Of a stretch of 64,000 bases of DNA, positions 29,998 to 40,612 are shown in pieces. Numbering within the stretch: position 1 is the stretch's first letter; each line of letters begins with the position of its first letter. A program made the position numbers and the translations under genes. This DNA comes from Eledone cirrhosa (taxonomy: Eukaryota), in NCBI GenBank assembly GCA_964016885.1, contig OZ024741.1, positions 217,868,001-217,932,000 on the forward strand. Direction: 5' to 3'. The notes below the pieces were generated by a model. It saw nothing but the letters and a program-made list of their open reading frames with translations, did no database searches and was not told where the DNA came from.

Positions 29998-30530
29998 TTA
30001 GGTAAGGCGTGTCTTCTCTGTTACTGAGTACCGCCAAAGGTCTCGGTCCAGTGACATTGTCTTGGAGAGGTGTAAGTGTGTGAGGTCGGAATTTATCAGC
30101 TCGTCCCAGGTTTTCCTGGGTCTGCCTACTCCGTGGCTACCATCTATCTTTATTGCCCTGCACTTTGTTATACAGCTGTCGTCTTTCATGCGCATCACGT
30201 GACCATACCAACGTAGCCTTCTCTCGAGTAAACAACATCTGATCCCTCTTATTTCTAATTTTTTCCTTAGTTCATTTATGCTTTGCCGTTCACGTATATT
30301 ACTATTACACATCCAGCGGAGCATGCAAGCTTCGTTCCTCTCTAGTCTGCGTATATCCTCTGCACACAATGCCCAGGTCTCACTGCCATGCAACATTGCT
30401 GTTCGTATGCAGGCATCATACAACCTGCCTTTCATTTTTAGGGAGAACCCTTTAGCGGCTAATAGTGGTATAAGCTCTCTGAACTTTTTCCATCCAGTTC
30501 TGACTCTAGCTACTGTACTTTCAGAGCACC
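29998..30530 (-). pseudogene. RTE C-terminal ORF fragment
   Basis: LHGSETW, RRLRWYGHVMR, GRPRKTW, DRDLWR motifs. Confidence 0.93.
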
Positions 30531-31658
30531 CTCCCCACTGCTGATTTTGTCACCCAGGTAACGGAAGCTGTCCACTATTTCTATAGAACCCTCTGCGCAA
30601 TTGAAAGAGTTAATGTTTTGTGGGCACTTGCTACTACTTATTGCACCAGAGCACCGGCCACATGTAAAATCTGTGTTCTTAGTTAGCTTACCTGTGATCC
30701 CACTACATCTTTTATGCACCCATACTTTGCATTTGGGACATAAAATGGAGTTTCTACCTACGCCTTTCCTACACACTGAGCATGGCCATTTCCAGGAGGG
30801 GACCGGCGCCTTATTTTCTTTCCTACAAACTAGAACTTTAGTCTTAGTCAGGTTAATTTTAAGGCCTTTTGATTCTAGGCCGTGCTTCCATGTTTGGAAT
30901 TTCTTCTCTAGCTCGGCCATTGATTCAGCTATGAGCGTTAGATCATCTGCATATAGGAGTTCCCATGGGCAGCCGGTCTTGAACTCCTCTGTTATAGCCT
31001 GAAGGGCAATAATAAATAGTAGGGGGCTAAGAACAGAGCCCTGATGGACACCAACTTTTACGCTAAACTCTTCACTATATTCGTTGTTAATTCTAACCTT
31101 GCTGACTGTTTCTTTATACATGGCTTGTATGGCTCTCACAAGCCATTCGTCAACACCTAGTTTTCTAAGAGCCCACCAGATAATGGAACGGGGGACTCTG
31201 TCGAAGGCTTTCTCCAAGTCGACAAAAGCTAAGTATAGGGGTTTACTTTTAGCTAGGTACTTCTCCTGTAGTTGTCGTACAATGAAAAGAGCGTCTGTGG
31301 TACTTTTGCCTGACACAAACCCGAACTGCATTTCATCTAGATCAATTCTCTCTCTGATTAGTTGCGCTATTACTTTTTCCGTGACCTTCATGACCTGGTC
31401 GATTAATTTAATGTCTCTATAGTTACTCCTATCTAGGGCGTCTCCTTTACCCTTGTAACAGTTAACGATGATGCTGCTACGCCAGTCCTTCGGAACAACC
31501 CCATTCTGTATGACTTGGTTTACTATCCGGGTGACCATGGTGTGTCCCACCGTACCGGAGGCTTTCAGCATCTCAGCAACTATTTCCGAAGGCCCAGCCG
31601 CCTTACCCGTCTTCATATCTTTGATTGCCTTACTTATTATACTACCTTCAACTAGCAC
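30510..31658 (-). pseudogene. RTE reverse transcriptase plus PHD-like Cys/His finger ORF fragment
   Basis: FVDLEKAFD, GVHQGSVLSPLLF, LLYADDL, then CSVC...CPKC..WVH..C...CGRC and FRYLG. Confidence 0.95.
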
Positions 31659-31750
31659 TGCTGGTCCCTCTATTGGATCGATGTGGGGGAGACTGTCTTT
31701 CTCCCATTTATTCTCCTCATTTAGTAGCCTTTCGTAGTGACACTTCCAAG

Positions 31751-32905
31751 CTACCTTCTTATCAGCGTCAGTGATGGCAAGTACGCCATCATCGTTAAGT
31801 ACACACTTCTCCCCGACAATATCATGGTTTTCCTGAACACCTCACGTTTTTGGTCCTCGCGTTGTAGAACATGCTTGAACTTTCTTTCCTCTGTTTCCCT
31901 TCTTGCGAAGTACACTTGTCTCCTAGCTTCCCTCCTGGCCACTTGATAGTCTTCTCTACTTCCCCCATCCCGCCATACTTTCCAAGCCTGCTTTTTGGCC
32001 TTGATTGACCCCTCCACCTTACTGTTCCACCACCATGTTACTCTCCTCCTGCCTACAGGCCTGCTCCAGTAACAGACTTCGTCTGCCGCCATCAGCAGGT
32101 TTGCTTTCAGGAATTCCCACTGTTCCTCTACCTTGTACGACTCTAATTGCTCTTCCTTACTGTCGAAAGCATCAAGTAATATGCTTTGAAATTTATTTCT
32201 GGCTGTGGGATCCTTTAGCTTCCATATTTTTCTCCTGAGGATAGTCCTCTTCTGCTGTCTAGTACGTCTCGTCCTGACTATGAGGTCGCTAATTATCAGT
32301 CTATGTTGGGAGGTGCATTCTTCATGGGGGAGGGATTTAGTGTTTACAACAGACACTCTGTCACGTCCTCTGGTAAGGATATAATCTACCTGGCTGGTAT
32401 GTTCCCCTGATCTGTAGGTGATCAAGTGATTGTCTCGTTTTTTGAAGTTAGTGTTACAGATAGTTAGGTTGTTCGCATCACAGAATTCCAGGATTCTGGA
32501 GCCTTCCTCGTTTCTAGTACCAAACCCATAGCCTCCGTGGATTCCGTCATAGCCATCACAATGTTGTCCAACGTGACCATTTAGGTCGCCAGCAATAATT
32601 ATATAGTCACTGTCGGTTATTTGGGAGGTAGTGAGCATCAGTGTCTCATAGAATCTGTCTTTTATAATGCCAGGCAGTCCGGATTGGGGCGTGTATGCAA
32701 ATATTACTGTCACAGTAGTTCTGTTTAGAACAAGTCTTATTTTAATTATTCTGTCATTCACTCTATTTACGTCTATTATCTTATCCACCCATTTTTCTGT
32801 TAACATGATTCCTACCCCACCTATCCCATTGTCATTCCCCACCCAGAAAAGCTTATAGCAACGTTTTTTACCAACAATGAATCTAGCAGACCCGCCCCTC
32901 CACCT
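31751..32905 (-). pseudogene. RTE apurinic endonuclease domain ORF fragment
   Basis: Motifs GVGIML, AGDLNGHVG, NEEGSRILEFC, SQVDYIL, SQHRLII, TWWWN. The N-terminal start of APE is missing. Confidence 0.93.
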
Positions 32906-33534
32906 GTCCGCGGCCGAAACAAAGAGGGTGGGGGGCCTTGCCCCTTCGTCCGGCAGCATGAGGTGAATTTGTCGTTATCTTTGGCATTGTTATCGAGTGT
33001 CCAGATTCTTCAGACTCTTCAGAAATTCCTTAGTCCATCCATCATATCGTATCGAAAAGCAGCCAGTGGTGATAGCATAGGCCGTTGACTTGTGATTGGT
33101 CCAAATAGTAAAGGTGGAGAGTGGAGGCGGGAAGGAGGGATATGGGGGTAGTTAGCAATGAGGGAGACTATTTAGAACCAGCGTGGAGAAGATTAATTTA
33201 AAGCAAGAATAGCAACGATTGTAGATATATATGGATGAATGAACGAGGTTTTAAGGAGACAAGAAGAAAATGTTCTATAATACATTACATTTTCGTAGAA
33301 TCGACTGACCATTTAATAAGGGTTGACAAGTTCTGAGGTTTTGTCCCTCGTAACATTCTTATTTATATTAGGGAGTGAGAGGTCGAGAGGGACGTATATG
33401 TTAGAGAGAGTGGGAGTAATAGCGAATTTGATGGCCGGGAGAGAGAGAGAGAATCTATTTTTATGAATCCTGGAAAATTTTAGCAATGAGGGAGACTATA
33501 TATATATAAGCTGAACATATAGACAAAATGATCC

Positions 33535-33755: not shown

Positions 33756-33919
33756 TATATATATATGTACATAAATATATGTATATATAAATATATATAT
33801 TTTTTTTCCTGGACCTTTCCGACGGAATTACTTCATTTAAATATATATATATATATAAATATAGGAAAAGAGTCAGGGCCCCGATGGCTGGGCTCTGGCC
33901 ATTTCGACAGCTAGGTCGT

Positions 33920-35548
33920 CCTGTTGGTGTCACAACAAAAAGCACCCAGCCCACACTGTAAAGTAGTTGTGTTGGTGACATGACAAACAGCACCCAGCAC
34001 ACACTGTAAAGTGGTCATGTAGGTGTCACAACAAAAAGCACCCAACACACACTGTAAAGTGGTCATGTTGGTGACATGACAAACAGCACCCAGCACACAC
34101 TGTAAAGTGGTCATGTAGGTGTCACAACAAAAAGCACCCAGCACACACTGTAAAGTGGTCATGTTGGTGACATGACAAACAGCACCCAGCACACACTGTA
34201 AAGTGGTCATGTAGGAGACATGACAAACAGCACCCCGCACACACTGTAAAGTGGTCATGTTGGTGACATGACAAACAGCACCCAGCACACACTGTAAAGT
34301 GGTCATGTAGGAGACATGACAAACAGCACCCCGCACACACTGTAAAGTGGTCATGTAGGAGACATGACAAACAGCACCCCGCACACACTGTAAAGTGGTC
34401 ATGTTGGTGACATGACAAACAGCACCCAGCACACACTGTAAAGTGGTCATGTTGGTGACATGACAAACAGCACCCAGCACACACTGTAAAGTGGTTGTGA
34501 TGGTGACATGACAAACAGCACCCCGCACACACTGTAAAGTGGTTGTGATGGTGTCATGACAAACAGCACCCAGTCCACACTGTAAAGTGGTCATGGTCAT
34601 GTTGGTGACATGACAAACAGCACCCAGCACACACTGTAAAGTGGTCATGTTGGTGTCATGACAAACAACACCCAGTCCACACTGTAAAGTGGTTGTGTTG
34701 GTGTCATGACAAACAGCACCCAGTCCACACTGTAAAGTGGTTGTGTTGGTGTCATGACAAACAACACCCAGTCCACACTGTAAAGTGGTTGTGTTGGTGT
34801 CATGACAAACAACACCCAGTCCACACTGTAAAGTGGTTGTGTTGGTGTCATGACAAACAGCACCCAGTCCACACTGTAAAGTGGTTGTGTTGGTGACATA
34901 ACAAACAGCACCCAGCACACTGTAAAGTGGTTGTGTAGGTGTCATGACAAACAGCACCCAGTCCACACTGTAAAGTGGTTGTGTTGGTGACATAACAAAA
35001 AGCACCCAGCCCACACTGTAAAGTGGTTGTGTAGGTGTCATGACAAACAGCACCCAGTCCACACTGTAAAGTGGTTGTGTAGGTGTCATGACAAACAGCA
35101 CCCAGTCCACACTGTAAAGTGGTTGTGTTGGTGACATGACAAACAGCACCCAGCACACACTGTAAAGTGGTCATGTAGGAGACATGACAAACAGCACCCA
35201 GTCCACACTGTAAAGTGGTTGTGTAGGTGTCATGACAAACAGCACCCAGTCCACACTGTAAAGTGGTTGTGTTGGTGACATGACAAACAGCACCCAGTCC
35301 ACACTGTAAAGTGGTTGTGTAGGTGTCATGACAAACAGCACCCAGTCCACACTGTAAAGTGGTTGTGTTGGTGTCATGACAAACAGCACCCAGCACACAC
35401 TGTAAAGTGGTCATGTTGGTGTCATGACAAACAACACCCAGTCCACACTGTAAAGTGGTTGTGTTGGTGTCATGACAAACAGCACCCAGCACACACTGTA
35501 AAGAGGTCATGTAGATGTCACAACAAAAAGCACTCAGCACACACTGTG
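33920..35548. repeat. 48-bp minisatellite (~34 units) expanded from an internal module of the RTE/SINE 3' region
   Basis: Unit ACAAACAGCACCCAG(T/C)(C/A)CACACTGTAAAGTGGT(TG/CA)TGT(T/A)GGTG(A/T)CATG runs directly into the parent element 3' end at 35549-35700. Confidence 0.95.
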
Positions 35549-35700
35549 AATGTGGTTGGTGTTAGGAAGAGCATCCAGCCAGAACCAATCCTATATGAGT
35601 AAGACATGATCATTTGACCCAACTTGCCTCAAATGGAACACTCCCTTCTAACCCATGCTAGCATGGAAAATGGACGTTAAACAATGATGATGATGATGAT
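35549..35700 (+). mobile_element. 3' end of the RTE/SINE-type parent of the 48-bp array
   Basis: ggaagagcatccagcc...cccatgctagcatggaaaatggacgttaaa(tga)n. Confidence 0.85.
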
Positions 35701-36399: not shown

Positions 36400-36883
36400 A
36401 TATTGTTATACTTTGGGAGGGTCATGTTGCTAATAAGAAACACATGCACCAGTTGCTTTCACTCCAATTTATTATAAATTAAAGTATAAATTTAAAAATT
36501 TCCGGATGGTTGGTTGGTTCCACAACCGGACGGTTGTTCATATATTGTCAAAGTTCTTTCGTCACACATTCTGTGACCTCTTCAGTGACTGGGGATTCTT
36601 TTCTTTGTCCTACGCCATCTTGTTTTTGTGAACACACACAAAAACAAGATGGCGTAGGACAGAACAAAGGAGAGGCACAAAACAAAGAAAAGAATCCCCA
36701 GTCACTGAAGAGGTCACAGAATGTGTGACGAAAGAACTTTGACAATATATGAACAACCAGAAATTTATAATATATTGGAGTGAAAGCAACTGGTGCGTGT
36801 GTTTCTTATTGGCAATATGACCCTCCCAAAGTATAACAATATCGGTTTCAACACACGTTTTCAGATAAAGAATCTTGCTAAAC
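36400..36883. mobile_element. fold-back element with hammerhead-like core in each arm and a one-sided ~40-nt tail
   Basis: ~200-bp inverted arms centred near 36633. Core gtca CTGAAGA g GTCAC agaatgt GTGAC GAAA gaactt tgac at 36701-36743. Tail 36843-36883. Confidence 0.8.
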
Positions 36884-36906
36884 AAATTCAGAAACGAAAT
36901 ATATAT

Positions 36907-39539: not shown

Positions 39540-39825
39540 CATCATTTCATCATTTCATTTTACGTCCACTTTTCCCTGCTTGCAAGGGTGGGACGGGAAC
39601 TGATTCTGGCTTGATTTCTACAGCTGGATGCCCTTCCTAACACCAACCTCATTTACAGTGAGTGCTGGGTGCTTTTTTGCCGTGGCACCTCCACGACCAC
39701 TTTGCAGTGGAATGATAGGGACCCCAGTCCCTATCATCTCATTTCTACAGCTGAGTAAACTGGAGCAATGTGAAATAAAGTGCCTTGCTCAAGGAAACAA
39801 CACATCACCCAGTCTGAGAATTGAA
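39540..39825 (-). mobile_element. SINE family A copy, truncated in the tRNA head
   Basis: Matches other copies up to ctgagaattgaa, then (TA)n. Confidence 0.9.
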
Positions 39826-39837
39826 TATATATATATG

Positions 39838-40255
39838 TGAGGTAATTCCGAAGGAAAAGCAAAGGAAAAAAGAGTGCTCTATGTATAGAACAGAGCTATT
39901 TAATTAGAAAGTAAACAACACAATATATAACTACTCCATTACCAAAGGTTTCAGGACCCTAGACAAAATTAATGTATGTCTAGATCGTTCATCAGACAGA
40001 GATGTTATCTTATGGGCTGAAACCTCGAAGTACTGCAATACCAGGTCAACCTGTGGCAAAGGCGGAGCAAGCCCCCAACTCTTTACCTATTTCCGAAAAT
40101 CAGTTTAATATCGATGATCCCATATAGGGATCGTATCAGATATTAAGCTGATAAGAACAGGTCTGATGAACGATCCAGACATATATTAATATTGTCTAGG
40201 GTCCTGAAACGTTTGGTAATGGAGTAGTTATATATTGTGTTGTTTACTTACTAAT
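39838..40255. mobile_element. fold-back element with hammerhead-like arms enclosing a U2 snRNA fragment; tail at 39838-39902
   Basis: ~95-bp inverted arms at 39903-39997 and 40161-40255, each starting gtCTGATGA-hairpin-GAAAC. Flanked by (TA)n. Confidence 0.75.
40012..40160 (-). pseudogene. U2: 5'-truncated U2 snRNA copy (about nt 40 to the 3' end)
   Basis: Minus strand reads CTGTTCTTATCAGCTTAATATCTGATAC (stem IIa), GATCCC/GGGATC stem IIb, variant Sm site GATTTTCGG, GGCTTGCTCC stem III loop, GACCTGGTATTGCAGTAC stem IV. It lacks the 5' end and branch-site-pairing GTAGTA. Confidence 0.95.
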
Positions 40256-40268
40256 ATATATATATATA

Positions 40269-40612
40269 TGGAGGCACATGGCTTAGTGGTTAGAGCATTG
40301 GCCTTGCAATTGAAAGGTTGTGAGTTCAATTCTCAGACCGGGTGATGTGTTGTTTCCTTGAGCAAGACACTTTATTTCACATTGCTCCAGTTTACTCAGC
40401 TGTAGAAATGAGATGATAGGGACCCCAGTCCATATCATTCCACTGCAAAGTGGTCGTGGAGGTGCCACGGCAAAAAAGCACCCAGCACTCACTGTAAATG
40501 AGGTTGGTGTCAGGAAGGGCATCCAGCTGTAGAAATCAAGCCAGAATCAGTTCCCGTCCCACCTTTGCAAGCAGGGAAAAGCGGACGTAAAATGATGATG
40601 ATGATGATGATG
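40269..40612 (+). mobile_element. full-length SINE family A copy
   Basis: ggaggcacatggcttagtggttagagc (A box), gagttcaattctc (B box), RTE-type terminus plus (TGA)n. Confidence 0.92.

Follow-up and report, generated by a model that had tools for sequence, protein, structure and literature searches.

A U2 snRNA fragment between head-to-head arms of a Penelope-like element in Eledone cirrhosa, and further small-RNA captures beside hammerhead-bearing repeats

The window analysed here is a 64,000-nt stretch (G000:C2:217868001-217932000) of a 3.0-Gb genome, and the sole RNA recognised in it by Rfam is a U2 snRNA on the minus strand, with a score of 102.7 bits, which bears out the U2 fragment reported in the initial annotation. 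The repeats look cephalopod-like. The fragment is enclosed by two inverted arms derived from a Penelope-like element (PLE), and these in turn are bordered on both sides by (TA)n. The features of the locus, with the basis of each assignment in brackets, are:

39825-39839, no strand: (TA)n/(TG)n run, the left target side (sequence; most other copies lie in the same context).
39840-39899, minus strand: PLE "tail" of ~60 nt, on the left arm alone (clustering of arm ends, pair counts).
39900-40008, minus strand: long arm, the 3′ end (pLTR) of a PLE family, in the sense of U2 (repeat matches, colinearity with ORF and UTR).
39927-40008, minus strand: predicted complete type I hammerhead motif, with the core CTGATGA at 39995-39989 and the predicted cut after 39940.
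40009-40011, minus strand: 3-nt linker, neither U2 gene flank nor sequence of the parent element.
40012-40160, minus strand: U2 snRNA nt 41-189, up to its inferred mature 3′ end (Rfam and the genome's own U2 genes).
40161-40255, plus strand: short inverted arm, without tail, in which the hammerhead lacks the 5′ strand of stem I.
40256-40269, no strand: (TA)n run, the right target side (sequence).

Comparison of the U2 piece (40160-40012) with its closest variant, a tandem gene on C13, gave 144 of 149 identical positions, and 4 of its bases were absent from all 11 U2 variants fetched. The piece halts at nt 189, short of the 3′ flank of the gene. In other dispersed U2 copies that are complete on the 3′ side, the last base is one of nt 189-192, from which nt 189 is taken to be the mature 3′ end. 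Since the piece ends before the gene's 3′ flank, as other retrocopies do, the template was therefore RNA. The U2 promoter, the 5′ part of U2 and the U2 3′ flank are all missing from the locus. The insert had been described as U2 from about nt 40 to the 3′ end followed by ~14 extra nt; the U2 portion agrees well with this (nt 41-189), but the 14 nt (39998-40011) are not U2 flank, as the U2 genes continue differently beyond their 3′ ends. Instead, 11 of them recur in other copies of the element, and the remaining three form the linker. The reported lack of a poly(A) stretch was confirmed; whether a target duplication is present as well is not readable, because both flanks consist of (TA)n. The junctions between U2 and the arms were read in one assembly. 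The U2 locus itself is probably without function, and the copy that holds U2 is probably inert and has not multiplied.

The arms (39903-39997 and 40161-40255) are 95 nt long and 95% complementary, in line with the 95-bp inverted repeat first noted around U2. They differ at 5 of 95 positions and have three minority alleles in common. Both hold the series CTGATGA-hairpin-GAAAC, but the start attributed to them, 2 nt before CTGATGA, does not apply to the left arm, which begins 13 nt before that motif because 11 of the 14 nt next to U2 are element sequence. At its other end the left arm runs on as the ~60-nt "tail" to 39840. The hairpin is itself surrounded by an outer 271-nt inverted repeat, formed by two copies of an abundant SINE (39555-39825 and 40270-40595) that face away from each other and are identical at 261 of 271 positions; the left copy lacks the head, which we take to be tRNA-like.

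Elsewhere in the window, positions 1-27000 consist of ~27 kb of an extremely G/T-skewed simple repeat (GC skew ~0.98). A decayed, LINE-like reverse transcriptase region was recognised by eye on the minus strand at ~30100-33000, a minisatellite with a unit of ~48 bp lies at 33900-35560, and a short head-to-head hairpin of another PLE-like family, with a longer relative in L117, was found at 36500-36900. Genes for U2 (in two variants), U6 and U1 form tandem arrays elsewhere in the genome (G000), at C3:307.35-307.45, C13:36.17-36.18, C19:31.78-31.84 and C2:180.97-181.00 Mb.

With regard to the hammerhead, the 11 nt of element sequence provide the 5′ strand of stem I, as a result of which the long arm folds into the full type I motif. 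The right arm lacks this strand, and the initial description of the repeat as hammerhead-armed consequently holds in full for the left arm, where the motif is complete, and not for the right. Imposing the hammerhead fold gave −12.2 kcal/mol for the left (long) arm versus +10.6 for the right arm, and stems I-III of the long arm are contained in its minimum-energy fold. Across 53 copies, 94.6% of the cells in the hammerhead pairing were compatible with it, as compared with 30-55% for slid controls. Covariation was modest, in that pairs changed on both sides were matched by 210 of 500 shuffles, a control that is weak because related copies inflate it. The z-scores of the arms' unconstrained folds were not significant, and the Rfam profile search of the window called no hammerhead. 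The hammerhead of the long arm is hence described as a predicted motif, on the strength of the motif and the pair counts. In vitro, PLE hammerheads are inefficient cutters (PMC4209133), and at the hammerhead site of an anole PLE no read ends were observed (PMC11167929).

The left arm and its extension (39840-40008) constitute a repeat with 3146 first-look candidates, 40 of which were scored. An adjoining inverted partial arm was present in 19 of the 29 other top copies, and U2 in none of them; inverted arms are thus not peculiar to the U2 locus. Likewise, a tail on one arm only was observed in 54 of 63 distinct head-to-head pairs among the loci tested, some of which had been picked for having two arms, and in the window the tail is confined to the left arm. 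The ends of the arms cluster at element positions 107-113 and 168-170. Arms within one locus are 93.9% alike, compared with 89.9% between loci (63 pairs), and non-majority bases are common to paired arms in 364 of 674 cases, as against 128 expected. Most other copies of the family share the (TA)n target seen in the window. Decayed pieces of a putative RT/GIY-YIG ORF, colinear with the 3′ UTR and the arm, were found in 3 of 8 fetched regions (L186, L190, L193). One ORF fragment scored 0.96 against GIY-YIG/HTH_animal clusters of the ESM atlas and has 8 longer homologues; this fragment (L187) displays a CxCx5C linker followed by VVY..YVG with no cysteine in between. An upstream walk through the regions fetched revealed no intact ORF of the window's family, Pfam returned 0 matches on the Hydra-type ORF pieces, and a search for the parent ORF by the extension of L026 recovered short copies only. 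ORFs near arms in L105, L117, L120, L124 and L126 were considered as parent and rejected, as they belong to other families; an RWK motif was found only in the sibling ORF in L126.

In combination, these observations identify the arms as the ordinary 3′ end of an abundant PLE family. Judged by its sequence features, the family probably belongs to the Hydra clade, the signature of which comprises a C-terminal endonuclease (EN) without CCHH, a CxCx5C linker, (TA)n targets and hammerheads (PMC8557442). The arrangement of an inverted truncated copy with a one-sided tail has also been described for PLEs (PMC8557442, PMC3846280).

By its 3′ end, U2 is attached to the element at a position that forms a break hot spot in this family; the hot spot coincides with the 5′ edge of stem I and lies 68 nt upstream of the predicted hammerhead cut. 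At the hot-spot base, the 267 exact matches that span it divide into 57 with C, 94 with A or T and 116 with the parent's G. Counted by eye among the matches listed, 55 of the 57 C-type and ~64 of the 94 A/T-type sequences leave the parent at this point, and two of the three letters of the linker recur at the break in 44 of the 57 listed C-type junctions (also by eye). A cap-derived origin of the C was considered; 2 of the 57 C-type sequences continue as parent, and an inverted arm can supply a C. The parent has no AG at the hot spot, for which reason a splice site was dismissed. Several copies of the family continue by self-priming through stem I, and the hot spot is also where, in L197 and L106, an arm of the window's family gives way to sequence from other PLE-like families. 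On its 5′ side, U2 joins the short arm without microhomology. The divergence of the arms (5/95) and that of U2 (5/149) are consistent with a single age, and the alleles and differences of the arms, along with the four private bases of U2, speak for one old event rather than a mis-assembly.

The junction was found only once. A search for the U2 3′ end followed by the hammerhead core gave 3 matches, of which only that in the window is U2, the other two being chance. Among U2 sequences with an exact 18-mer, 81 of 82 listed are intact across nt 41, and only the one in the window breaks there. No Utopia or Keno element is present at the U2 junction, where the neighbour is the inverted PLE arm. The locus contains no ORF, whether for an RLE or APE endonuclease or otherwise, and the ORF linked to the family is of a putative GIY-YIG type. 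Further copies that share the U2-element junction, in the manner of SINEU, were not found in the assembly. Searches for arm-gap-arm patterns showed foreign cargo at the window only (1 of 5 loci; 1 of 26 matches by the first 80 bases), Rfam gave 0 matches to cargo RNA on 18 hand-picked loci of the window's family, and the hunt for cargo in this family yielded none beyond the window among the matches listed, which in one search were 100 of 210, with part of the remainder covered by a further one. The Rfam search of the genome for U2 returned genes only. The proposal of an element family that uses or targets U2 is thus not borne out: the junction is unique, all other listed U2 sequences are intact and no Utopia/Keno element is involved. 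Keno and Utopia, initially said to insert at about this position, insert at U2 nt 38/39 (nt 39 in Phytophthora numbering), with U2 on their 3′ side, which places the Utopia site 1-2 nt from the break (PMC4640811). We read this proximity as either a coincidence or a shared stall point. Modified bases of U2 near nt 40 may stall reverse transcription.

Cargo-bearing relatives, by which the first interpretation was to be judged, were not found among the loci of the window's family examined, but independent captures of U2, pre-tRNA and U6 were observed with other hammerhead families. Two of 25 other U2 loci examined belong here, L247 (C6:55168646) with U2 nt 14-189 and L262/L349 (C1:413399170) with U2 nt 1-191. 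At both, a second repeat family is attached to the 5′ end of U2 through short microhomology, and (TA)n follows the U2 3′ end; U2 stands at the variable end of that family and in the opposite sense (head-to-head), between (TA)n runs. The second family is a ~1-kb tandem unit with 1409 candidates. One of its ends is constant in 29 of 30 loci while the other varies, and it carries a hammerhead-type motif whose loop 3 was found by eye to be palindromic across variants. In L279-L308 the family looks young and retrozyme-like: its copies are ~99% identical, all start at one point in (TA)n and in some cases exceed one unit, and stem II of the motif is long and branched; retrozymes have been argued to be derivatives of PLEs (bioRxiv 10.64898/2026.07.22.740005).

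In the same geometry, a tRNA-Asp was found at the variable end of the second family in one of 28 further loci scanned (L287:2617-2712; C1:116038376). Its source is a tandem tRNA array on C3 that repeats every ~1.34 kb. The captured copy includes 6 nt of leader at one end and runs into the source's T-run terminator at the other, which identifies it as a pre-tRNA. L247, L262 and L287 fit priming from two ends because they contain no sense arm to fold back on. Opposite-sense LINE-1 chimeras have correspondingly been explained by twin priming (PMC4476161, PMC13174262). For U1, 39 of 40 matches were gene-like and one was a dispersed copy; the dispersed U1 in L350 runs from ~nt 14 to the 3′ end and is followed by (TA)n, with unassigned sequence on its 5′ side.

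For U6, 100 of the 101 matches to its 3′ end were listed, 32 of them gene-like and 68 not. From these, 20 regions with partners unlike the common SINE/LINE ends were chosen by eye and, with L335 and L347, make up 22 loci; two of the families concerned had been recognised before fetching. In 12 of the 22 hand-picked loci (L335, L347, L354-L356, L358, L361-L364, L367 and L370), which represent several different repeat families, the terminal T run of U6 is joined right after a GAAA-C..G-UH motif of the parent (GCAA in one family). Examples are found at G000:C10:48072622, C2:266758283 and C4:274669677. The whole core is contained in the parent at 9 junctions, where 2-9 base pairs close stem I right at the join, and only the 3′ half of the motif was found at 3. 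The loose motif test is passed by ~1% of positions (11/1071), and the strict full-core test at the U6 junctions gave cores for one family only; the counts of 9 and 3 come from a wider test that also admits the U3-A8 core variant (PMC4209133) and relaxes the requirement on stem I. L335 reproduces the layout of the U2 locus, with U6 between inverted PLE arms and a single tail. Among the U6 loci in which U6 is fused to unassigned repeat ends (L359, L360, L365, L368, L369), two have the same start and some contain mirrored U6. Many dispersed U6 copies show the classic chimera layout, their partner being either a SINE head or the 3′ portion of a single short element, and in L336 U6 lies between a PLE arm region and the end of a SINE.

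Hammerhead products carry a 5′-OH. RtcB joins U6 with a cyclic-phosphate end to 5′-OH RNA (PMC6789731), and the position of U6 at cut motifs suggests cleavage in vivo followed by ligation to U6; a run-off jump from a cut end would give the same pattern. Given the poor cutting in vitro and the lack of reads at the anole site, the U6 pattern bears on the question of cutting in vivo.

As for the window, we consider it probable that the locus is one head-to-head PLE insertion in (TA)n, during the integration of which the reverse transcriptase likely jumped onto mature U2. From the anatomy, family, polarity, single copy and U2 end point observed, we infer the following enzymatic steps. An endonuclease would cut (TA)n, and reverse transcription would begin at the tail. 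About 170 nt would be copied through the uncut hammerhead, as far as the point at the 5′ edge of stem I where the family usually stops. After the 3-nt linker, synthesis would go on from the U2 3′ end and halt at nt 41, and the short inverted arm, joined without microhomology, would then arise either through a second priming event at the opposite DNA end or through fold-back. By analogy with L247, L262 and L287 we lean towards second-end priming, although fold-back also occurs, as evidenced by the self-priming copies through stem I and by the mirrored U6 loci. For a PLE protein from an anole, cutting and extension of both strands have been shown in vitro (PMC11167929). The template switching between element RNA and U2 put forward in the initial annotation is in keeping with the polarity of U2, with its mature 3′ end and with where the junction lies; the U2-using family offered beside it is unsupported.

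By sequence, such a jump is not distinguishable from a prior ligation of RNA, in which U2 would be joined to the element RNA and the chimeric RNA then reverse-transcribed, as for U6/LINE-1. The polarity would be identical, and the U6 junctions, which in 12 of 22 loci fall precisely on hammerhead-type cut motifs, agree with RtcB ligation (PMC6789731). However, U2 is joined 68 nt upstream of the predicted cut, and with a linker in between. U2 ends in a 3′-OH, which counts against its ligation by RtcB. This enzyme needs a 2′,3′-cyclic phosphate (PMC6789731). On balance, prior ligation is an unlikely source of this locus.

The insertion could also have arisen in two events, with a U2 retrocopy or U2 DNA entering an existing PLE hairpin at the repair of a break, or with the arms inserting next to a U2 pseudogene of greater age. 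The genome has more than 20 dispersed copies of U2, and hairpins are fragile; yet neither arm is separated from U2 by target sequence, U2 reaches the family's break hot spot exactly with its 3′ end, and the divergence of the arms agrees with that of U2, which makes such a history quite improbable. It is very improbable that the assembly joined a U2 gene to a repeat hairpin: the region is rich in repeats and the junctions were read in a single assembly, but 4 U2 bases occur in none of the 11 variants, the arms differ from each other, and analogous junctions were seen at other loci. Hardly any weight can be given to a U2-targeting or U2-carrying family (Utopia/Keno-like) or a founder SINE headed by U2, since, despite a 5′ break 1-2 nt from the Utopia/Keno site and the existence of U2-headed SINEs (PMC4494074), 81 of 82 listed U2 sequences are intact, the junction is single-copy, the U2 promoter, 5′ part and 3′ flank are absent, and in the two further captures U2 is broken elsewhere, at nt 14 and nt 1.

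The U2 locus is a by-product and not the mark of a U2-carrying family, and the class of captures is of more value than the locus. We tentatively propose, as a generalisation that could about as easily fail as hold and is put forward with some reserve, that hammerhead PLEs routinely retropose nuclear small RNAs by two routes, namely separate priming of the ends and in vivo cleavage with ligation to U6 (RtcB-type); the U2 locus would be one fossil of this activity. By the first, each end of the cut (TA)n would be primed separately, and U2 or pre-tRNA would be copied at one of them and become joined head-to-head to the element; by the second, hammerhead products with a 5′-OH would be ligated to U6 before copying, which would leave U6 at the cut site, as seen in several families.

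How PLEs make their head-to-head inversions, which RNA strand is copied and whether the hammerheads cut in vivo are stated to be open questions (PMC3846280, PMC8557442, PMC4209133, PMC11167929). A captured snRNA marks the direction of synthesis, because its 3′ end is fixed and no antisense form of it exists. In the window the captured piece points to sense RNA as the template of the tail-bearing arm, and the captures with an inverted arm only (L247, L262, L287) favour priming from both DNA ends. U6 at predicted cut sites would amount to genomic evidence of cleavage in vivo, and could be counted in any PLE-rich genome. No report of snRNA-PLE chimeras or of U6 at hammerhead cut sites was found in the open-licence literature searched, the supplements of which may list some, and the main text of an octopus repeat paper contains neither "hammerhead" nor "snRNA" (PMC13282606).

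Among known systems, the closest in anatomy are the EN+ PLEs of the Hydra clade (PMC8557442; PMC3846280, PMC11167929), which have in common with the locus the head-to-head truncated copy, the tail on one arm, the hammerhead in the pLTR, the (TA)n target, the C-terminal GIY-YIG without CCHH and the CxCx5C linker. Here, by contrast, a cellular snRNA fills the inversion junction, the tail measures ~60 nt as opposed to 30-40, and only decayed ORFs were found. The snRNA-LINE chimeras (PMC4476161, PMC13174262, PMC6789731; tripartite PMC2104539) share the 3′ end of an snRNA fused in sense to a 5′-truncated element, and their opposite-orientation partners have been explained by twin priming (PMC4476161, PMC13174262). 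The present locus differs from them in that the element is a PLE, the RNA is U2 and not U6, there is no poly(A) or readable target duplication, and a sense and an antisense partner are combined in one insertion.

Unrelated sequence between pLTRs is also known from the PLE capture in Adineta vaga (PMC3846280), although there the captured material consists of intron-containing genes or spacers, whereas the cargo described here has mature RNA ends. Utopia and Keno (PMC4640811) likewise display U2 from ~nt 39-41 after element sequence, but they insert into U2 genes with their own 3′ end on U2; at the present locus the neighbour is an inverted PLE arm, and the gene flanks are missing. Finally, the non-LTR retrozymes (bioRxiv 10.64898/2026.07.22.740005) share the type I hammerhead and a proposed derivation from PLEs. 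It is the second family that resembles them, whereas the family of the window is linked to an ORF and forms hairpins instead of tandem arrays.
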